The notes under the pieces were generated by a model. That model saw nothing but the letters and a program-made list of their open reading frames with translations. It was not told the origin of the DNA and did not search any database. 64,000 nucleotides of DNA, taken from the IMG/VR virus record IMGVR_UViG_638275541_000001; one strand, given 5' to 3'. A program made the translations under genes and the position numbers. Source of the DNA: a virus (lineage: Duplodnaviria; Heunggongvirae; Uroviricota; Caudoviricetes). Numbering within the stretch: position 1 is the stretch's first letter; each line of letters starts with the position of its first letter. Of the stretch, positions 5,290 to 34,209 are shown piece by piece.

Positions 5290-5311
5290 AGGCTCCTTCG
5301 GGAGCCTTTTT
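5290..5311 (+). terminator. rho-independent terminator
   Basis: GGCTCC-TTCG-GGAGCC hairpin plus TTTTT. Confidence 0.75.
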
Positions 5312-5330: not shown

Positions 5331-5678
5331 ATGACATTTAAAGAGTTCTGTCAAGCTACTTTCATAATTGTTTTCTTAGTTGGGGCAGGTGTCTGGGGAG
5401 GATACTCTTACAGAGACTATCAAGTTGCTGAAACTGAGCTAAACAATCAAAAGCTCATAAGTGTTGCTAAAGATGCTTATCAGGAAGGATTAGTCACACT
5501 GAGCACCAATTACAAAAATGATTTGAAAGATGTGCTTGCTAAGAATAAGCATACAAAAGAGGTACTAACATATGAAAAAACTAAGCCAGAGTTTTATAAT
5601 GTTTGTGTTACTGATAACTATGTCAGGGTGTTCAACGAACAAAGTGAACAGTACATTCAAAAACTCCCAAGTAAGTGA
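5331..5678 (+). CDS. membrane-anchored protein, i-spanin-like
   Basis: AGGAG RBS; N-terminal TM helix (FIIVFLVGAGVWGG) then soluble domain; 3' end overlaps next gene by ~107 nt. Confidence 0.4.
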   Translation: MTFKEFCQATFIIVFLVGAGVWGGYSYRDYQVAETELNNQKLISVAKDAYQEGLVTLSTNYKNDLKDVLAKNKHTKEVLTYEKTKPEFYNVCVTDNYVRVFNEQSEQYIQKLPSK

Positions 5679-5841
5679 GAGCGATAAGTACACTCAAGAA
5701 GAGTCACGTTATATCATCAAAGGCAACACAGGCAGTGATGTAGCAGCAGCCCTTGAGTTCTATCGTGACGGCTTTTACCAGTGTACAATCAAAGCTAATA
5801 ACCTTATTGACATGATTTTATTAGGGAATAAGCAGCAATGA
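5572..5841 (+). CDS. lipoprotein, o-spanin-like
   Basis: GAGG RBS; signal peptide with lipobox (ITMSGC); overlaps preceding TM-protein gene in another frame. Confidence 0.4.
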   Translation: MKKLSQSFIMFVLLITMSGCSTNKVNSTFKNSQVSESDKYTQEESRYIIKGNTGSDVAAALEFYRDGFYQCTIKANNLIDMILLGNKQQ

Positions 5842-6734: not shown

Positions 6735-6936
6735 AAAGACACGAAAACTTATCAGGTCAGCAGTGTTCATTGGACGAAATGAGGTCATCCCATTTACAGC
6801 AAATGATGTGATAGCTTACAGGAAGAACTTAGTATTCACTGACTGCTTACGTGGCTTCATCTCTGAACCATTGGAAGACTTTAAAAGTCGTTGTGGTAAA
6901 GGTATCATCATTCAAGAGGCAACTATTCATGGCTGA
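6709..6936 (+). CDS. hypothetical protein
   Basis: ORF in early array. Confidence 0.35.
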   Translation: MKVILARDKKTRKLIRSAVFIGRNEVIPFTANDVIAYRKNLVFTDCLRGFISEPLEDFKSRCGKGIIIQEATIHG

Positions 6937-7129
6937 CTTCTGTAAAGACTGTTCTATCGAAATGTTCGGACGTGATACAGGTGACTTAAAAGGTCTTATC
7001 ACTGAAGAGGACTTTAAAGCTGGCTATGCAATGCCAGTAATCTGTGAAGGATGTGGATGTATCTGGGTAGACCACGAAGGACAACGTGTAAAACCTTCAG
7101 AAGATAAAGAATCTTGGGAGAGATGTTAA
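6929..7129 (+). CDS. small Cys-rich (zinc-ribbon-like) protein
   Basis: internal ATG start (MADFCKDCS...CEGCGC); AAGAGG RBS upstream. Confidence 0.4.
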   Translation: MADFCKDCSIEMFGRDTGDLKGLITEEDFKAGYAMPVICEGCGCIWVDHEGQRVKPSEDKESWERC

Positions 7130-7915
7130 ATGGGTATTATAAAAATCATCAATGGTGATATCTTTGCTGCATTTGATAAAGGTAAGTTTGACATCATTGG
7201 TCACGGTTGCAACTGTATGAATTTAATGGGTGCAGGTATCGCTGACAAGATTTCTAAACTTTACCCAAAAGCATATGAGACCGATACAGAAGTTTATCTA
7301 TATGCAGGTGGTATAGGCCACAAACCCTGTGAAAATTTACTGGGTAATTTCTCCGTAGCACGTTTAAAACAAGGTCGTATAGCTAACCTTTACACTCAGC
7401 TTAAGACTGGTAAAGATGCACGATACAGTGCTTTAGAGTCATCTTTGAAACAGCTTAACAGATACTGTGAAGTTAACCAGTTGAAGAAGGTTGGTCTACC
7501 TATGATTGGTGCAGGTATCGGTGGACTTGACCCGCAAGCTGTCACAGTTATCATCAATCAGGTCATGAAGAGTGTAGATGTTTATCTGTATGTCTATGAA
7601 GGAGAGATGTACCACAAGTTACGCTCAGGTTGGAAGAACTACTGTGAACCAGAATACTTTGCAGGCGTAGCTGTGTTCACGGATAATGCAGTTACCCTCT
7701 TCAGACGAAGAAAAGGTAAGATACATCAAAGTAACCCTCCGGTTGAAAAGATGTCTCTAAGTAACGCTCTAGTTACCCACCTGTCGAAGAGCAATCACAG
7801 AATTGCAGTAACATTTGGCAGTGATGCAGATACTTATATCTATGCAAGAACTGATGAGGATATCGAGTTAATCTTCTCTTCACCAGAGCTTACCTTCTTA
7901 GACGCAAAGAACTAA
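7130..7915 (+). CDS. macro-domain protein (ADP-ribose binding/hydrolase-like)
   Basis: IINGDIF...FDIIGHGCNCMNLMGAGIA and GLPMIGAGIGGL match macro-domain signature blocks. Confidence 0.5.
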   Translation: MGIIKIINGDIFAAFDKGKFDIIGHGCNCMNLMGAGIADKISKLYPKAYETDTEVYLYAGGIGHKPCENLLGNFSVARLKQGRIANLYTQLKTGKDARYSALESSLKQLNRYCEVNQLKKVGLPMIGAGIGGLDPQAVTVIINQVMKSVDVYLYVYEGEMYHKLRSGWKNYCEPEYFAGVAVFTDNAVTLFRRRKGKIHQSNPPVEKMSLSNALVTHLSKSNHRIAVTFGSDADTYIYARTDEDIELIFSSPELTFLDAKN

Positions 7916-7986
7916 GAAACTTCGTAGTATATTCACAATAGACTAAGCCTTTCTTATCTGGTAAATTTTTCAGGTAAGGAGGGCTT

Positions 7987-8167
7987 TTTCATTTCAGATT
8001 TGTGCAGGTAGAGTTCTGTAGAGAAATCTATAGAGAAAATTTTGAACTCCAAAGAGAAAATTCATTTTCAAACTGTGCAGGTAATCTCCAAAGAGCTTTT
8101 TCATTTTCAAAACGTGCAGACCCCGCTCAGGTCGGGCAAGAAAAATCATTTTAGAATTGTGCAGGTA
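7987..8167 (+). repeat. four direct copies of a ~23 bp element (TTCATTTTCAAANTGTGCAGGTA)
   Basis: copies at ~7987, 8059, 8097, 8145 upstream of the early-operon promoter. Confidence 0.7.
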
Positions 8168-8180
8168 GGTTTTTATAGAG

Positions 8181-8222
8181 AGCCAGCCCAGCCCCTCTCC
8201 CCCTCTTACTCCCCCTCCCCCC
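8181..8222 (+). repeat. polypyrimidine (C/T-only) tract
   Basis: CCCAGCCCCTCTCCCCCTCTTACTCCCCCTCCCCCC in an otherwise AT-rich genome. Confidence 0.8.
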
Positions 8223-8343
8223 AAAAGTCAAGAGAAAAATTTGTAGCGGATTGAAAAATAATTCTTGATTTGCGTTCTGTTTTGTGGTAGTCGTGTGCGC
8301 CCGTTCATTTCCCAACCTTACAAAAAATATTTAATAAAAACCG

Positions 8344-8372
8344 TTGACACGCCAAACAAGTTTACGTACTAT
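8344..8372 (+). promoter_or_regulatory. strong sigma70-type promoter (TTGACA-17-TACTAT)
   Basis: consensus -35, 17 nt spacer, near-consensus -10, ~50 nt upstream of first small early gene. Confidence 0.6.
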
Positions 8373-8422
8373 TTGCATCAGACGGGCAATCAAGCCACTT
8401 CCTAAACTGGAGAATCTAAAAA

Positions 8423-8629
8423 ATGCTTTACAGTCGTGAATTGATGGTTACAACCAACGTTAATACAAATGTAAAACGCTTTTACATGCAAGTATGTGGC
8501 GCATGGTCCAGAATTTCAGAAGCTGACTATTGCAACTATGTAGAAACAGCTATAAACTCTAATTGCTACCTTACAAGAAATACTAAGAATTTTACAAGGC
8601 AGACAGCAATTTACTATTACGATAAATAA
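8423..8629 (+). CDS. small early protein (unknown)
   Basis: ATG preceded by conserved leader CCTAAACTGGAGAATCTAAAAA. Confidence 0.5.
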   Translation: MLYSRELMVTTNVNTNVKRFYMQVCGAWSRISEADYCNYVETAINSNCYLTRNTKNFTRQTAIYYYDK

Positions 8630-8643
8630 AAAGTACTTTACAT

Positions 8644-8672
8644 GGGGCTTAAAAGTCTGTAAAGTAAGCCCC
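8644..8672 (+). promoter_or_regulatory. intergenic leader hairpin, type A (GGGGCTTA...TAAGCCCC + CAGATAAAGAG)
   Basis: GC-clamped hairpin followed by conserved CAGATAAAGAG and RBS leader; copies also at 9246 and 10313. Confidence 0.5.
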
Positions 8673-8716
8673 AGATAAAGAGCTTTACCACTTAATCCTA
8701 AACTGGAGATTCAAAA

Positions 8717-9245: not shown

Positions 9246-9273
9246 GGGGTTATCAAGCTGATAAGATAGCCCC
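9246..9273 (+). promoter_or_regulatory. intergenic leader hairpin, type A variant
   Basis: GGGGTTATC...GATAGCCCC: different stem sequence, same pairing, followed by CAGATAAAGAG. Confidence 0.45.
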
Positions 9274-9315
9274 AGATAAAGAGATTTATCAACTGTCCTA
9301 AACTGGAGATTCAAA

Positions 9316-9938: not shown

Positions 9939-9973
9939 CACTGGTTTTTAGATAGATTAAATTACACATCAAC

Positions 9974-9993
9974 GGGGAGGGAATGACCTTCCC
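9974..9993 (+). promoter_or_regulatory. 5'-leader hairpin, type B (GGGGAGGG-AATGA-CCTTCCC)
   Basis: preceded by TTGACA-N17-TAAATT promoter-like block and followed by conserved ACTAAATAAAGTCCTTAAACTAGGAGA RBS leader. Confidence 0.5.
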
Positions 9994-10027
9994 ACTAAAT
10001 AAAGTCCTTAAACTAGGAGACTCGAAA

Positions 10028-10300
10028 ATGTATACTACTAACAACGGTCGTACTCTAAACGTAACTTTACGGCACTATGTAGACGGTGTAATGCACTTTG
10101 AGGATTTACGGGCTGAACAACATATCTTAGATTGGCAAGTAGCAGGACTCCAAAAAACTGCTACGGGATACGGTAAAAAGATTCCAACCAGTTGGAAGGT
10201 ACACTATGAAGGACGTCTGCGCAGAATTTATCAAGATGTGTGTAGTAATAGCGCATCAAGTTACATCATAGTAAAAGGTAAAAAACTGCACTTAGTATAA
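10028..10300 (+). CDS. small early protein (unknown)
   Basis: start set at ATG after conserved leader; track ORF started upstream inside the leader. Confidence 0.5.
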   Translation: MYTTNNGRTLNVTLRHYVDGVMHFEDLRAEQHILDWQVAGLQKTATGYGKKIPTSWKVHYEGRLRRIYQDVCSNSASSYIIVKGKKLHLV

Positions 10301-10312
10301 AGTGCTTTACAT

Positions 10313-10341
10313 GGGGCTTAAAAGTCTGTAAAGTAAGCCCC
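10313..10341 (+). promoter_or_regulatory. intergenic leader hairpin, type A
   Basis: near-identical copy of the 8644 element. Confidence 0.5.
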
Positions 10342-10386
10342 AGATAAAGAGCTTTACCACTAAATCCTAAATTGGAGAACTTAAAA

Positions 10387-10791: not shown

Positions 10792-10839
10792 AAATTTTAT
10801 TGACACTGGTTTTTAGATAGATTAAATTACACATCAACT

Positions 10840-10859
10840 GGGAGGGAATGACCTTCCCC
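10840..10859 (+). promoter_or_regulatory. 5'-leader hairpin, type B
   Basis: GGGAGGGAATGACCTTCCCC preceded by TTGACACTGGTTTTTAGATAGATTAAATT block. Confidence 0.5.
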
Positions 10860-10894
10860 ACTAAACAAAGTCCTTAAACTAGGAGATTCTAAAA

Positions 10895-11236
10895 ATGGCT
10901 TATGTGACTGTAATTACCAATAAGGCAGATTCATCTTGGTCAACTCAGGTTAGTGATAAGATGTCACCTATGCAGTGTCTAAAATACTTTGAGCAATGGA
11001 ATAAAGGCGAAGATGTAAGCCCCTTTCAAGTAATGCAGATTATCCATGTAGACAACGAAGGGAAGAAAACAACTCTGAATAGTGAGTACTACGCAAGCCG
11101 TTTTGAAACGAGAAGTAAAACAATGAAGCTTCTTCGTGAATCCGGTTATCCTCATATTGCCGCTCTAATCTGGGATGACCTGCTAAAAAGTCAGCGTATC
11201 AGCTATGTAAAACCTGAAAAAATATTCATCAGTTAA
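10895..11236 (+). CDS. small early protein (unknown)
   Basis: conserved leader + ATG. Confidence 0.5.
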   Translation: MAYVTVITNKADSSWSTQVSDKMSPMQCLKYFEQWNKGEDVSPFQVMQIIHVDNEGKKTTLNSEYYASRFETRSKTMKLLRESGYPHIAALIWDDLLKSQRISYVKPEKIFIS

Positions 11237-11404
11237 TCAATAACTTACAAAAAACTTTTAAAAAAGTGTTGACAATACCCCTTGACATTGGTAACTTTGT
11301 TCGAGGGGGTTTATCTAAAAGGGATTCACTTAAAAGATTCTTTATAGATAAGCTTAAAAAATTGCTTGCAATCAGCTATCAAAACAAGTAAATTACTAAT
11401 CAAC

Positions 11405-11425
11405 GGGGAGGGAATGACCTTCCCC
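11405..11425 (+). promoter_or_regulatory. 5'-leader hairpin, type B
   Basis: GGGGAGGGAATGACCTTCCCC. Confidence 0.5.
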
Positions 11426-11458
11426 ACTAAATAAAGTCCTTAAACTAGGAGAGTCAAA

Positions 11459-11989
11459 ATGAACAAGTTTAAAGCTATCAACTTCATTCGTTCAAATGCT
11501 GTAATGTCTAAGCCTGTAAAAGATACATACGAATTTCGTTGTAATGGGGTACATTTCGCAACAATCACCAAATCAGAAAACGGGGCTTATTACGTTCATC
11601 GTCGTAATGTTTCGACCGTTGTAGTCTCTCACTTTATGCAAGCTGTAGCGGAATTATTACCGTTATTCTTAGAGATTTACTTAGATGAGTGTAAAAACGT
11701 TCACAACCACGTTAAAAGCCTTTTAAACGGTTATAAAATGGCTTATGAACGTTCTATCAAGTCACTAAACAAGTTCTATAAAGCCCCTGTAAATACTGTT
11801 TCAATGGCCTACGCTGCAAATGGTGAAAGGGTAAACCTATCCAATGTGGAAGAAATCGAGCTTTACGACCATCGACCTAGCGGTTACTCTAAGACACTGG
11901 GAGAAGGTTTATCTTTCAATATCAAGAACTTAGAAAAAACTTTAAAAGATATTGAAAAAGACATTGACGAGACAATCAAAAATCTGTAA
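11459..11989 (+). CDS. early protein (unknown)
   Basis: conserved leader + ATG. Confidence 0.5.
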   Translation: MNKFKAINFIRSNAVMSKPVKDTYEFRCNGVHFATITKSENGAYYVHRRNVSTVVVSHFMQAVAELLPLFLEIYLDECKNVHNHVKSLLNGYKMAYERSIKSLNKFYKAPVNTVSMAYAANGERVNLSNVEEIELYDHRPSGYSKTLGEGLSFNIKNLEKTLKDIEKDIDETIKNL

Positions 11990-12002
11990 ATTACTAATCA
12001 AC

Positions 12003-12022
12003 GGGGAGGCGATAACCTCCCC
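12003..12022 (+). promoter_or_regulatory. 5'-leader hairpin, type B with compensatory substitutions
   Basis: GGGGAGG-CGATAA-CCTCCCC: stem preserved by covarying bases relative to other copies. Confidence 0.5.
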
Positions 12023-12056
12023 ACTAAATAAAACCCTTAAACTAGGAGATTCTAAA

Positions 12057-12305
12057 ATGGCTACTATCCGCGCAACTGTTAACGAATTTGGCTTCTACTC
12101 TCTGGATGTTAAATTTGACATTGCAGGCACTGATAACGCCTTTGAAATGGTGAAAGGCCTTATCAGTCAGACCATCAAAGATTATAATCCTTCGGATGAG
12201 TTCTGGGAGGAAACAAAACAAGAAGTTCTCAAGGATGGCTATACTTATCACTATTGGGGAGAAAAAATCGTCTCCCTGTACTACAATAAACAAGATTATA
12301 ACTAA
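12057..12305 (+). CDS. small early protein (unknown)
   Basis: start at ATG after conserved leader; track ORF began at 11952. Confidence 0.5.
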   Translation: MATIRATVNEFGFYSLDVKFDIAGTDNAFEMVKGLISQTIKDYNPSDEFWEETKQEVLKDGYTYHYWGEKIVSLYYNKQDYN

Positions 12306-30624: not shown

Positions 30625-32226
30625 ATGGACTTAAATGCTGTTAAGCAGAAGCGAGTGGAAGATGTTAGGAAAGTCCTAGCTGGAGAGTTGGGGCTTTCTG
30701 ATGAAGTAAAAGAAATTATTAAATCATTCGGTAAAGACCCCTCTAAATTCCTTCCAACTCAAATTCTGACTTTATTAAGATACACACCAGACCAAGTTCG
30801 CCTTATCTTTAAATTGATGACTGATAAGAACTATGTAGCCCCTCAGCCGGGTTCTCAAGAGGTCTTTTTAAACACTAATGCTGACTTGGTACTCTATGGT
30901 GGTGCTGCTGGTGCTGGTAAGACTGCTGCATTGTTAATGGACTCCTTAAGATTTATTGAAGACCCTAACTATAATGCTGTGTATTTCCGTCGAAATACAA
31001 CACAGCTACAAGGTGGTTTATGGCCTGCTGCAAAGAAACTATTTGGTAAGTTTGGTGGGATTCCTCACGAGCAGAAAATGACTATCACATTCCCTTCTGG
31101 GGCAACTATCAAGTTTACCTATCTAGAACTTGAAAAGCACGCTGAAGGTCATCAGGGTATTGAATACTCAGCTATTTACTTTGACGAAGGTACACACTTC
31201 TCTGCTTCACAGATTTCATACCTACAAACCCGTCTACGTTCTGGTGCTGAAGGGGATTCATACATGAAGATTTCCATGAACCCAGACAGAGACCATTTTA
31301 TTTATGATTGGGTAGAGCCATTCTTAGATGAAGAAGGTTATCCAGACCCTGAAAAGTGTGGTCGTATTCGTTGGTATGTAATGAATGATGGTGTGATGGT
31401 TTCTGATTGGGAGAGAGACAAGATTCTTGAAATGTTCCCTCTTGAGATTCCTCAAACATACACCTTCATCTCTGGTACGATTGATGATAACCCAATTCTT
31501 GACTTCTTAGAACCTAAGTACCGTGGTAAGTTGGAAAACAACACCCCTGTAAACGTTGCAAGACTTCGTTTCGGTAACTGGAAGGCTCGTGCAGAAGGTT
31601 CAAACTATTGGCAAAGACAATGGTGTGAAATTGTTGATTCACTCCCAGAGGATGTATTTGATGTTAGAGCATGGGACTTAGCAGCAACTTTACCATCTGA
31701 AATTAACCCTAATCCAGACTGGACAGCAGGTGTTAAGATGGGTAAATCTAAAAAAGACGGTTGCTATTATATCATTGATGTAGTAAGATTTAGAGATAGA
31801 CCCTCTGGAGTCGAAACACAAATTAATTTGACTGCTGAAAGTGACGGTAAGCGAACTGGTATTTTTATCCCTCAAGACCCAGGCGCTGCTGGTAAATCCT
31901 ACGCAACATCCCTCATCAGGAAACTTGCCGAGAAAGGCTATCGTGCAAGAGCTAAACCAACAAATAAAGATAAAGTTACCCGATTCGCGGGGTTTTCTGC
32001 TGCTTCTGAAGCTGGACTTGTAAAAGTTTTGAGAGGTAGTTGGAACGAAGCTTATTTCCAAGAGCTTGAAGGCTTTTGTGGTGATGGCAAAACTAAAGAT
32101 GACCAAGTGGATGCTACCAGTGATGCTTTCAACAGTCTTAACGAAGTTAAATTATTCAAGCCACCATCAATGGGTGCTCACACAGACTTAGTGAGAGGAA
32201 ACCCATATGAGGGGCTTAGACGTTGA
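30625..32226 (+). CDS. terL: terminase large subunit
   Basis: Walker A LYGGAAGAGKT; acidic ATPase and C-terminal nuclease-type regions; start at first ATG with GGAGG RBS (track began at TTG 30610). Confidence 0.8.
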   Translation: MDLNAVKQKRVEDVRKVLAGELGLSDEVKEIIKSFGKDPSKFLPTQILTLLRYTPDQVRLIFKLMTDKNYVAPQPGSQEVFLNTNADLVLYGGAAGAGKTAALLMDSLRFIEDPNYNAVYFRRNTTQLQGGLWPAAKKLFGKFGGIPHEQKMTITFPSGATIKFTYLELEKHAEGHQGIEYSAIYFDEGTHFSASQISYLQTRLRSGAEGDSYMKISMNPDRDHFIYDWVEPFLDEEGYPDPEKCGRIRWYVMNDGVMVSDWERDKILEMFPLEIPQTYTFISGTIDDNPILDFLEPKYRGKLENNTPVNVARLRFGNWKARAEGSNYWQRQWCEIVDSLPEDVFDVRAWDLAATLPSEINPNPDWTAGVKMGKSKKDGCYYIIDVVRFRDRPSGVETQINLTAESDGKRTGIFIPQDPGAAGKSYATSLIRKLAEKGYRARAKPTNKDKVTRFAGFSAASEAGLVKVLRGSWNEAYFQELEGFCGDGKTKDDQVDATSDAFNSLNEVKLFKPPSMGAHTDLVRGNPYEGLRR

Positions 32227-32242
32227 TAGCTAGGTGAGAAGA

Positions 32243-33709
32243 ATGGCAGATATTACAGAAACACAAGAAAGCTTACCACCATTTAGAATGGGTGAAGTAG
32301 GTTCTTTGGGTCTGAAGGTTAAGAATGGAAGAATCTATGAAGAACCTCGTCAGGCACTAAGGTTCCCTGAAAGTATTAAAACTTTCCAATTAATGATGCG
32401 TGACCCTGCTGTAGCAGCATCTGTAAATATTATTAAGATGTTTGTCAGAAAAGTCAACTGGAGATTCGTACCTCCAAAGGGAAAAGAGCAAGACCCTAAA
32501 ATGCTTGAAAGAGCAGACTTCTTTAATTCTTTAATGGATGACATGGAGCATGATTGGGCAGATTTTATTAACTCTGTAATGTCATTCTGCACTTATGGGT
32601 TCTGTGTTAACGAGAAAGTTTATAAGAAGCGACAGGGTAAAAAAGGAAAGTACCAGTCAAAATTTGATGATGGTTTAATCGGATGGGCTAAATTGCCAAT
32701 CAGAAACCAGTCAACGCTTGATAAGTGGTACTTTGACGAAGACTTTAGAAGAGTTACTGGTGTTAGACAGAATCTGAGAAATGTTTCACATATTGCTGGA
32801 GCAATTAATCTCGGAGAAAGACCACTGACAAGAAAACTTCCACGAGCTAAATTCATGCTGTTTAAGTATGACGATGAATATGGAAACCCAGAAGGTCGTT
32901 CACCATTACTTAATGCTTATGTACCGTGGAAGTATAAAGTACAGATTGAAGAGTATGAAGCTGTTGGTGTTTCAAGAGACTTGGTAGGTATGCCAAAGAT
33001 TGGTTTACCACCAGACTATCTGGATGAAAATGCAGAACCTGAAAAGAAAGCTTTCGTACAATACTGCAAAACTGTTGTTAATGATATGATTGCTAATGAC
33101 AGAGCAGGTTTAATCTGGCCTAGATATATTGACCCAGACACTAAAGAGGATATTTTTGAGTTCTCATTAGTCTCTAGACAGGGTGCTAAAGCATACGATA
33201 CAGGTTCTATTATTGACAGATATTCCAAGCAGATTATGATGGCATTTATGTCAGATGTTCTTGCTATGGGTCAGTCAAAATACGGTTCATTCTCTCTTGC
33301 AGATTCTAAGACAAGCTTACTAGCGATGTCGGTAGATATTCTGCTGAAGCAAATTAAGAACGTAATTAACCGTGATTTAGTTGCACAGACTTATGCTCTT
33401 AATATGTGGGATGATGAAGAACATGTACAAATCACATATGATGATATCGAAACTCCAGACCTTGAAGCAATTGGTTCTTATATTCAGAAGACTGTTGCAG
33501 TAGGTGCTTTGGAAGTTGACAAAGAGCTATCTAACAAGCTTAGAGAGCATATTGGTCTTCCTCCTGCTGATGAGTCTCAGCCAGTATCTGAAAAGCTTTC
33601 TCCAAATAGCCAAAGCCGCTCAGGAGATGGTTATAAGACCGCTGGAGAAGGTACTGCAAAGACACCTTCAGCGAAAGACCCAAGCACAGCAAATAAGGCA
33701 AATAAATAA
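32243..33709 (+). CDS. portal protein
   Basis: ~490 aa ORF immediately after terminase; track ORF began at GTG 32234. Confidence 0.6.
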   Translation: MADITETQESLPPFRMGEVGSLGLKVKNGRIYEEPRQALRFPESIKTFQLMMRDPAVAASVNIIKMFVRKVNWRFVPPKGKEQDPKMLERADFFNSLMDDMEHDWADFINSVMSFCTYGFCVNEKVYKKRQGKKGKYQSKFDDGLIGWAKLPIRNQSTLDKWYFDEDFRRVTGVRQNLRNVSHIAGAINLGERPLTRKLPRAKFMLFKYDDEYGNPEGRSPLLNAYVPWKYKVQIEEYEAVGVSRDLVGMPKIGLPPDYLDENAEPEKKAFVQYCKTVVNDMIANDRAGLIWPRYIDPDTKEDIFEFSLVSRQGAKAYDTGSIIDRYSKQIMMAFMSDVLAMGQSKYGSFSLADSKTSLLAMSVDILLKQIKNVINRDLVAQTYALNMWDDEEHVQITYDDIETPDLEAIGSYIQKTVAVGALEVDKELSNKLREHIGLPPADESQPVSEKLSPNSQSRSGDGYKTAGEGTAKTPSAKDPSTANKANK

Positions 33710-34209
33710 TGGCTGAAGTTATCTCTATTTCAAATGCTACACGAGTGCATTCGTATAGAGGTGTTCTTATCGTTACTGACAAATTATCTGTAGAGGCTGG
33801 CTCAAGGGTCAGCCTTTCAGGTTATGTAAGTGATGGTGGAACCTCTGACGTTTTCACTATTTGTAGGTTACTTGATGCACCAATGAGTGGAAAACCGTTT
33901 ATTTTAGGAAATTGTAGTGAAATTGTTAAAATTCCATTTGACAGTTCATGCCTTTTGGGTGTAAAGTTATATAACTGCGAGAATAAACGTATCAATGTTA
34001 ATAGCATTGAAGCCGCTTTCATTACCCTCGACACTGCATTTCAATCTCCAATGACAGTTAATAAAGAAACAAACAGACTTGAATACATTTTTTCACAAAA
34101 TGATTACAAAGTACTTGTCAAAGGCAAAGTATATGATATGATTGTAAATGTGGTAGATGAATCTGGTAACCATTCAACAGTCCTTAAACAAAAAGTAAGG
34201 TTTAATTAA
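33709..34209 (+). CDS. hypothetical head-module protein
   Basis: between portal and protease. Confidence 0.4.
   Translation: MAEVISISNATRVHSYRGVLIVTDKLSVEAGSRVSLSGYVSDGGTSDVFTICRLLDAPMSGKPFILGNCSEIVKIPFDSSCLLGVKLYNCENKRINVNSIEAAFITLDTAFQSPMTVNKETNRLEYIFSQNDYKVLVKGKVYDMIVNVVDESGNHSTVLKQKVRFN

Follow-up and report, generated by a model that had tools for sequence, protein, structure and literature searches.

The locus considered here raises the question of what a macro-domain protein encoded in the early region of a Salmonella phage contributes to infection. The window (the whole stretch of 64,000 nucleotides analysed, IMG/VR virus record IMGVR_UViG_638275541_000001) is that of Salmonella phage FO1a, a variant of Felix O1, and the gene in question, gp13 (7130..7915, plus strand), is an ATG-to-TAA open reading frame (ORF) of 786 bases that encodes 261 amino acids (aa) followed by the stop codon, is homologous to FelixO1p025 and, by nucleotide comparison, is 100% identical to FO1a gp13; the only other ORF longer than 40 aa within these limits has 53 aa and lies on the minus strand. 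At least 80% of the gp13 DNA is covered at 80-100% identity in 203 phage records, Felixounaviruses plus a few entered under the names of other hosts, and the counterparts in related records are annotated as 'macro domain protein', 'O-acetyl-ADP-ribose deacetylase' or, most commonly, 'phosphatase'. The gp13 gene is a correctly recognised and already annotated macro-domain gene in a known phage family. The reading that we prefer, with a probability of about 40%, is that its product is a macro hydrolase with a glutamine-type active site, an enzyme resembling an orphan antitoxin that serves in counter-defence in the manner of the anti-DarT factor AdfM.

The macro domain comprises residues 1-157 of the protein (7130..7600, plus strand). 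The Pfam Macro profile (PF01661) matches gp13 over positions 2-117 of 118 with 32.3 bits (E 1e-7), the gathering cutoff being 22 bits, and a profile built from 30 homologs matches the solved structures of TARG1 (8.5e-17), M. tuberculosis DarG (2.3e-16), Poa1p (3e-14), SCO6735 (5E3B; 1e-13) and T. aquaticus DarG (1.1e-13). The AlphaFold2 model of gp13, built on an alignment of homologs, has a mean predicted local distance difference test score (pLDDT) of 90.7 and a predicted template modelling (TM) score of 0.89, and in a Foldseek comparison with the PDB the nearest structures are TARG1 (target TM-scores of 0.81-0.85, E 2e-10), DarG (0.77-0.80) and Poa1p (0.75); the three-layer alpha/beta/alpha arrangement of the macro fold is evident in the model and in these matches. 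Judged by the profile matches and the predicted structure, it is confirmed that residues 1-157 form a macro domain, well beyond a chance resemblance, which belongs to the Tk.4/Poa1p-like clade of the ALC1/TARG1-like class. An earlier note, made from the letters of the DNA, had based the macro assignment on three sequence blocks, all of which are present in the ORF (IINGDIF at residues 6-12, IIGHGCNCMNLMGAGIA at 22-38 and GLPMIGAGIGGL at 122-133), and the structure prediction that it had proposed as a check recovers the fold. The macro assignment holds for residues ~1-157; the last ~104 form a separate domain, which the note overlooked. The observation itself is confirmed, and the evidence presented below supports the interpretation as essentially right.

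The putative active site was delineated by aligning gp13 to the DarG sequences taken from the solved structures and to TARG1. Invariant among the 30 homologs are H25, G26, N28, C29, M33, G36, A38, P46, G72, N86, L87, T89, Q90, P124, G127 and G129, and the residues of the predicted ADP-ribose (ADPR)-binding loops (N28, G34-A38 and P124-G132) are conserved. The HGCNC motif (H25-G26-C27-N28-C29, 7202..7216, plus strand) contains N28, which aligns with N22 of DarG, the asparagine in contact with the distal ribose; this residue and N23 of PhiKZ AdfM are active-site residues (PMC13309987). In the NLYTQ motif (N86-L87-Y88-T89-Q90, 7385..7399, plus strand), T89-Q90 falls on T79-K80 of DarG and T83-K84 of TARG1, so that Gln90 occupies the position of the catalytic lysine of both enzymes. 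The glycine-rich, predicted diphosphate-binding loop PMIGAGIGG (P124-G132, 7499..7525, plus strand) includes G131, aligned with D125 of TARG1. Accordingly, the Lys84-Asp125 dyad of TARG1 is represented in gp13 by Q90 and G131. The replacement of the lysine by glutamine extends throughout the family, being found in all 30 homologs as well as in T4 Tk.4 and in Adpp of Vibrio phage Gary, and it is also the state of SCO6735, where Gln85 occupies this position (the equivalence being drawn through the DarG/TARG1 lysine column, as stated in the literature, rather than through a direct residue alignment of gp13 and SCO6735). The SCO6735 enzyme efficiently strips thymidine-linked ADP-ribose from DNA, and its Q85A and Q85E variants are dead (PMC9411070). 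Because SCO6735 is active and Adpp, with the same glutamine, is an enzyme, the missing lysine is no argument for an inactive gp13; the absence of catalytic residues, which the earlier note had set as grounds for abandoning its idea, is therefore real with respect to the DarG/TARG1 lysine but does not carry the implication foreseen for it.

The gp13 protein belongs to PHROG 335 ('phosphatase'), whose profile gives a strong full-length match with E 5.9e-113; the same profile matches T4 Tk.4 (1.3e-65), Gary Adpp (1.3e-49) and proteins of rV5, Maynard and other Ounavirinae, and in tblastn searches the macro domain is present in 2,848 phage records. For gp13, the identity with Tk.4 is 34% along the entire macro domain (E 5e-24) and that with Adpp 28% (E 3e-14); Tk.4 and Adpp share 35% identity. 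These two relatives have distinct reported roles. In a transposon screen on a DarTG2 host, Tk.4 alone among the T4 genes was depleted; a clean knockout sensitises T4, and the protein was named AdfM, for anti-DarT factor (bioRxiv 10.1101/2025.11.20.689424). The same name was given in an unrelated study to gp104 of PhiKZ, a DarG-like macrodomain of another, more distant clade, which keeps the lysine and in vitro frees DNA of thymidine-linked ADP-ribose (PMC13309987). Adpp, whose gene in phage Gary lies between Adps and Namat, converts ADPR-1''-phosphate (ADPR-1''-P) to ADPR in vitro, letting the NARP1 pathway rebuild nicotinamide adenine dinucleotide (NAD+) once this has been cleaved by aRES, a RES-domain defence that NARP1-AP does not overcome without Adpp (aRES preprint). 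Of the two functions considered in the earlier note, reversal of ADP-ribosylation by host toxins thus has a family precedent in Tk.4, from which its role in gp13 would follow by analogy; degradation of ADP-ribose-derived signals found no direct support, the nearest activity in the family being the dephosphorylation of the aRES product by Adpp. In a metagenomic relative of 339 aa (P0026), a Tk.4-like macro domain is fused to cREC_REC (PF20274), which Pfam calls a cyclic-phosphate processing receiver domain; this fusion hints that some relatives of the Tk.4-like clade act in RNA-end or cyclic-phosphate processing.

To place gp13 relative to Tk.4 and Adpp, we used an alignment of 30 sequences with eight Ounavirinae proteins, four Tk.4 proteins of T4-like phages together with those of rV5 and Maynard, eleven NARP1-adjacent proteins (ten from Table S1 of the aRES preprint and Gary Adpp) and four outgroups. 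The Adpp signature employed here is of our own making, drawn from those 11 sequences and not from any definition in the literature. It consists of H-[QV]-[AC]-N-C in most of the 11 and, in all of them, of a glutamine followed by aromatic-x-aromatic (YNY, YHW, KYY or YDY), G-L-[AG]-G-G, and a loop before the next helix that is 4-7 residues longer; the loop of Poa1p is long as well. All eight Ounavirinae proteins display the Tk.4 features instead, namely HGCNC (or QGCNC/HGANC), NLYTQ and IGAGI[GA]G, and the loop that follows NLYTQ has 9 residues, exactly as in Tk.4, DarG and TARG1. The gp13 protein carries the complete set of Tk.4/AdfM-type motifs and has TQLKTGKDARY and GAGIGGL in place of the Adpp signature; unlike Tk.4, however, it is not a single domain of ~150 aa. 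In comparisons with hidden Markov models (HMMs) of the two groups, gp13 scores 123.8 bits with Tk.4 and 110.4 bits with Adpp, and for each of the eight Ounavirinae sequences the Tk.4 model is ahead, by 6-23 bits. The net charges and isoelectric points of the macro and C-terminal domains show no pattern that discriminates between the Tk.4 and Adpp types. Elsewhere, the macro protein of Cronobacter phage CR8 (1459-2001) has the full Adpp signature (YGQYTF..., GAGLAGGDW) and scores 173 bits with the Adpp model against 103 with that of Tk.4, and the annotation places no NARP1 gene closer than 1.5 kb to its gene; therefore, the Adpp-type form is found also away from NARP1 operons.

The remainder of gp13, residues 158-261 (7601..7912, plus strand), is an orphan domain for which six β-strands and one helix are predicted and which is modelled confidently both in the full-length protein and alone (pLDDT 79.7 in the latter case). 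Pfam yields nothing for this domain at E values up to 5, PADLOC contains no match, and in a Foldseek comparison with BFVD the SUSP2 ortholog is the sole match. The domain occurs in Ounavirinae only and always fused to this macro domain. In tblastn searches, it was detected in 254 phage records, all of which, among the matches listed, belong to Felixounavirus, Suspvirus or Mooglevirus, and more divergent two-domain versions are encoded by Kolesnikvirus, by Pectobacterium phages and by a metagenomic contig that shares the rIIA-rIIB-pnk synteny. When 1.84 billion cluster representatives were searched with a profile HMM of the domain, 13 hits emerged, of which the genuine ones are fragments or proteins fused to the macro domain. 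Two large hits (P0039 and P0041) proved spurious when the sequences were read, being repeat proteins that match on GVVYV-like strands, and the four remaining multi-stretch hits were discounted on the same repeat pattern. Taken together, this is an undescribed, fused, fast-evolving domain of the subfamily.

The rate difference between the two parts of the protein is pronounced: the C-terminal domain is 53% identical to its SUSP2-type counterpart compared to 81% for the macro domain, 22% compared to 52% for the BPS17L1 type, and 16-21% compared to 41-47% for a group of proteins of 250 aa, that is, its divergence is about twice that of the macro domain. Such divergence fits a module contacting a variable macromolecular partner better than it fits a small-molecule phosphatase, and architecture and evolutionary rate alike suggest that the C-terminal domain is a partner-binding or targeting module. 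At the same locus, Salmonella phage BPS17L1, likewise a Felixounavirus, carries an allele whose protein is 41% identical to gp13. The flanks of the two alleles have a nucleotide identity of 91-94%, and the FO1a window shows no nucleotide similarity to BPS17L1 at 7273-7967. Closely similar flanks around a dissimilar gene therefore indicate mosaic allele replacement at the gp13 locus.

The genomic distribution of the NARP1 genes bears on the choice between the two roles. Homologs of Namat are present in Felixounavirus, Suspvirus and Kolesnikvirus genomes; therefore, these phages would be able to use an Adpp-type activity. In the genome of UAB_Phi87, the macro gene (22404-23189) and Namat/Adps (30969-33677) lie on the same strand ~8 kb apart with rIIA and rIIB between them, and gp13 likewise is not within two genes of Adps and Namat. 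Table S1 of the aRES preprint, where the macro proteins adjacent to NARP1 are listed, includes no Escherichia, Salmonella or Felix O1-like phage. Compared to UAB_Phi87, FO1a has a 2.17-kb deletion (record 81736-81744 against UAB_Phi87 31988-34159) that takes out Adps (PrsA-like) together with the N-terminal 226 residues of Namat ('nadV') and leaves gp13 intact, so that FO1a is a variant without a functional NARP1 pathway of NAD+ reconstitution. Among Escherichia-phage records, 999 contain the macro domain compared to 178 with Namat, co-occurrence being judged here from genus-level counts only. On balance, the genomic context leans weakly to a Tk.4-like over an Adpp-like role.

Under the preferred reading, the macro domain of gp13 would bind ADP-ribose and hydrolyse the substituent on ribose C1'' in an active site of the glutamine type (N28, Q90 and the glycine loops), as in SCO6735, Tk.4 and Adpp, rather than of the lysine type of DarG and TARG1. 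The protein would thereby strip ADP-ribose from thymidine of phage DNA modified by DarT2-type toxins or by a related nucleic-acid ADP-ribosyltransferase, which would let phage replication continue, and the C-terminal domain might target the enzyme or bind a partner, either toxin or DNA, the second domain of DarG providing the analogy. From the fold, family membership, motifs, architecture and distribution described above we infer the substrate, the role in counter-defence and what the C-terminal domain does. The activity of the glutamine-type site of SCO6735 on DNA makes this chemistry compatible with gp13, and the location of gp13 outside a NARP1 operon, together with its persistence in FO1a despite the loss of Adps, counts for an AdfM-like role. 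In the literature searched, no paper joins 'Felix O1' and 'macro domain', the combination of Felixounavirus and DarTG leads to a phage-adsorption paper only, the PhageMaP essentiality study of Bas63 does not mention the gene, and the HIDEN-SEQ preprint mentions none of Bas63, Felix, Felixounavirus and Ounavirinae.

The closest parallel to gp13 is T4 Tk.4/AdfM, which shares with it PHROG 335, the HGCNC/NLYTQ/IGAGIG motifs, the loop length and the status of a phage gene without an adjacent toxin; the difference is that Tk.4 is a single domain of 155 aa whereas gp13 has the additional C-terminal domain of ~104 residues and belongs to a separate clade, and the anti-DarTG2 phenotype is that of T4 alone. 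With DarG of DarTG2 and with PhiKZ AdfM, gp13 shares the ALC1/TARG1-like macro class and the equivalent of DarG N22 and, with DarG, a two-domain organisation with the macro domain at the N-terminus. DarG is also the sole match of gp13 in NCBIfam and in PADLOC, in both cases through the macro part only: the score with the DarG equivalog model NF048014 is 48.7 bits, compared to a cutoff of 250, over positions 1-154 of 338, and the PADLOC DarG profile is matched over positions 2-147 of 329. Membership in DarG was rejected because the lysine is replaced (K80 of DarG being Q90), the C-terminal domain bears no relation to the one that binds DarT, the score is too low and there is no DarT neighbor. 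SCO6735 of Streptomyces coelicolor resembles gp13 in the glutamine at the catalytic-lysine position and in being a stand-alone protective enzyme outside a toxin-antitoxin pair, but is a bacterial, single-domain protein with a longer, lysine-bearing mobile loop after the glutamine that gp13 lacks. Human TARG1 (OARD1) has the same fold and is the top structural and sequence match but differs in the catalytic dyad, and yeast Poa1p, also with the same fold, shares H-x-C-N-C but has serine at the glutamine position and long insertions.

Several considerations weigh against the assignment of gp13 as a Tk.4-like enzyme acting on DNA. The protein is almost as near to Adpp as it is to Tk.4, and its HMM margin of 13 bits compares with margins that, for true members of either group, are usually 50-100 bits in leave-one-out comparisons; the Ounavirinae proteins therefore form a clade of their own, which by sequence is separate from both groups and somewhat nearer to Tk.4. 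Loop length is no strict predictor of substrate, given that SCO6735, with its longer mobile loop, still acts on DNA (PMC9411070). NARP1 is present in the Felixounaviruses apart from FO1a, and an Adpp-type activity would be of use in them. The C-terminal domain shows no resemblance to DarG's C-terminal domain or to any PDB structure, and the net charges of the domains give no sign of DNA binding. Furthermore, the evidence on Tk.4 is genetic only and comes from a preprint (bioRxiv 10.1101/2025.11.20.689424), and gp13 and its Ounavirinae homologs are known from sequence and predicted structure alone.

The strongest rival explanation, possible in our view although doubtful, is that gp13 is a phosphatase of the Adpp kind, which would turn ADPR-1''-P, produced when aRES phosphorolyses NAD+, into ADPR from which Adps and Namat rebuild NAD+. 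Apart from the similarity to Gary Adpp within PHROG 335 and the documented activity of that enzyme (aRES preprint), with which gp13 shares the conserved Asn and Gln positions, this explanation draws on Poa1p, which is the closest characterised cellular relative of the family by HHpred (aRES preprint) and a structural match of gp13 too, on the presence of Namat in the three genera of the gp13 lineage and of the Adps-Namat pair in UAB_Phi87, and on the long-standing 'phosphatase' annotation, which itself rests on ADPR-1''-P phosphatase activity. Yet, Adpp is encoded between Adps and Namat, whereas gp13 is ~8 kb away from these genes and no Escherichia or Salmonella phage figures in the NARP1-adjacent list; the features of Adpp-type proteins, Y-G-Q-Y-x-[YW], the longer loop and G-L-A-G-G, are absent from gp13, as is the signature common to the 11 NARP1-adjacent sequences, and gp13 also scores lower with the Adpp model; and Adpp has no C-terminal domain, a hypervariable extra domain being of no obvious need in a small-molecule phosphatase. 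T4-like phages, moreover, carry the Tk.4 form abundantly without Namat, as the Escherichia-phage counts illustrate, and FO1a retained gp13 after losing Adps and the 226 residues of Namat, a weak point given that the deletion may be recent.

An unlikely explanation is that gp13 is a hydrolase for another target, reversing mono-ADP-ribosylation of proteins or of RNA (for instance, uracil- or phosphate-linked) by other host toxins or tuning a modification driven by the phage itself. Its nearest structural relatives, TARG1 and SCO6735, act on proteins, thymine-ADP-ribosylated DNA and uracil-ADP-ribosylated RNA, the variable C-terminal domain could choose protein or RNA, and the cREC_REC fusion of P0026 points in the same direction; conversely, activity on protein or RNA has been shown for no member of PHROG 335, and no match to an ADP-ribosyltransferase family was found among the ten neighboring ORFs scanned (two spanin-type lysis proteins and eight of unknown function), nor do the annotations of a related genome list such an enzyme over its first 45 kb. 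Least probable, and very unlikely in our estimation, is a non-catalytic binder that would sequester an ADPR-derived signal (His-ADPR or gcADPR) or dock on an ADP-ribosylated partner, with the C-terminal domain as the effector. Macro domains can indeed be pure readers, as in the Thoeris II effector ThsA, which binds His-ADPR via its macro domain, and the lysine/aspartate dyad of TARG1 is absent from gp13, but the glutamine-type site is catalytic in SCO6735 (PMC9411070) and Adpp with the same glutamine is an enzyme; the family shows no variation at N28, Q90 and the glycine loops, as would be expected of an active site, and no phage macro-domain sponge was found in the literature searched.

The surroundings of gp13 are those of the early region of Felix O1, as the earlier note had supposed: on the plus strand, the order is rIIA - rIIB - pnk - spanin - small ORFs, with the gene inside the rIIA-rIIB-pnk region. 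A ribosome-binding site, GGGAGAG (7116-7122, plus strand), can be read from the sequence 7 nucleotides before the gp13 ATG, and the TAA stop of gp12 (7127-7129) directly adjoins this start codon. A consensus scan detects a terminator-like hairpin of 17 pairs followed by a T-run 30 nucleotides past the gp13 stop (7945-7996, plus strand), which is only a match to a pattern that the region contains no more often than chance would predict. Probably, gp13 is the last gene of a unit that begins after a hairpin at 5290-5307. The same apparent unit, in a part of the genome that otherwise counts as the early region, contains an Rz-like i-spanin gene (5331-5678) with an embedded out-of-frame ORF (5572-5841) that has the lipobox LLITMSGC and is a candidate o-spanin. 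Immediately upstream of the macro gene, gp12 (6929-7129) encodes a zinc-ribbon-like protein of ~65 aa with two CxxC pairs, and in a distant Ounavirinae-like contig (L007, 7810-8001) a 63-aa protein with two CxxC pairs is likewise found just upstream of the macro homolog; in both Felix O1 and this contig, these genes abut or overlap the macro start codon, and the homology of the two proteins is not significant (BLASTP E 0.51).

The gap of ~500 nucleotides that follows gp13 (7916-8420, especially 7989-8181) contains 4-5 copies of a ~34-nucleotide repeat of families D5 and D6 that ends in CATTTT(C/A)A(A/G)A(C/T)(T/C)GTGCAGGTA. The FO1a 'gp14' (8042-8254) consists of these repeats in translation (HFQTVQV...HFQNVQT) and is probably no gene; the repeats have the look of regulatory sites in multiple copies. 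Further downstream, two families of intergenic cassettes of 80-120 nucleotides recur ahead of successive small early genes, at 8627-8709, 9246-9291 and 10296-10378, and at 9958-10037, 10823-10902, 11389-11468 and 11987-12066. One family has the hairpin GGGGAGGGAATGACCTTCCCC, followed by TAAACTAGGAGA and ATG, and the other reads TTTACA...GGGCTTAAAAGTCTGTAAAGTAAGCCCC; likely, the early region of Felix O1 here reiterates modules that serve as promoters, as terminators or in RNA processing.

For PHROG 335, two counter-defence roles have been reported, against DarTG2 and in the recycling of ADPR-1''-P for NAD+ reconstitution. It is possible that gp13 is bifunctional, removing both thymidine-linked ADP-ribose and the phosphate of ADPR-1''-P and thus serving in DarTG and aRES/NARP1 conflicts with one site; since both reactions free a C1''-linked group, AdfM-like and Adpp-like roles could, we infer, coexist. 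The Ounavirinae proteins, located between the two studied clades and encoded in NARP1-bearing genomes, are therefore a good test of whether a single glutamine-type site does both. Speculative too, with the odds rather against it, is the idea that the macro protein of Ounavirinae constitutes a distinct counter-defence factor of two modules, in which the rapidly diversifying orphan domain would confer specificity by recognising host toxin variants, such as alleles of DarT2, or would recruit the hydrolase to the phage replisome or DNA; if so, the replacement of whole alleles between FO1a and BPS17L1 would reflect an arms race. Independent of that scenario, a fused orphan domain with allele turnover is a tractable candidate for a specificity or toxin-binding module. 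Felix O1-type phages are used in Salmonella typing, biocontrol and therapy, and knowing which defences they neutralise would therefore help to predict their host range.

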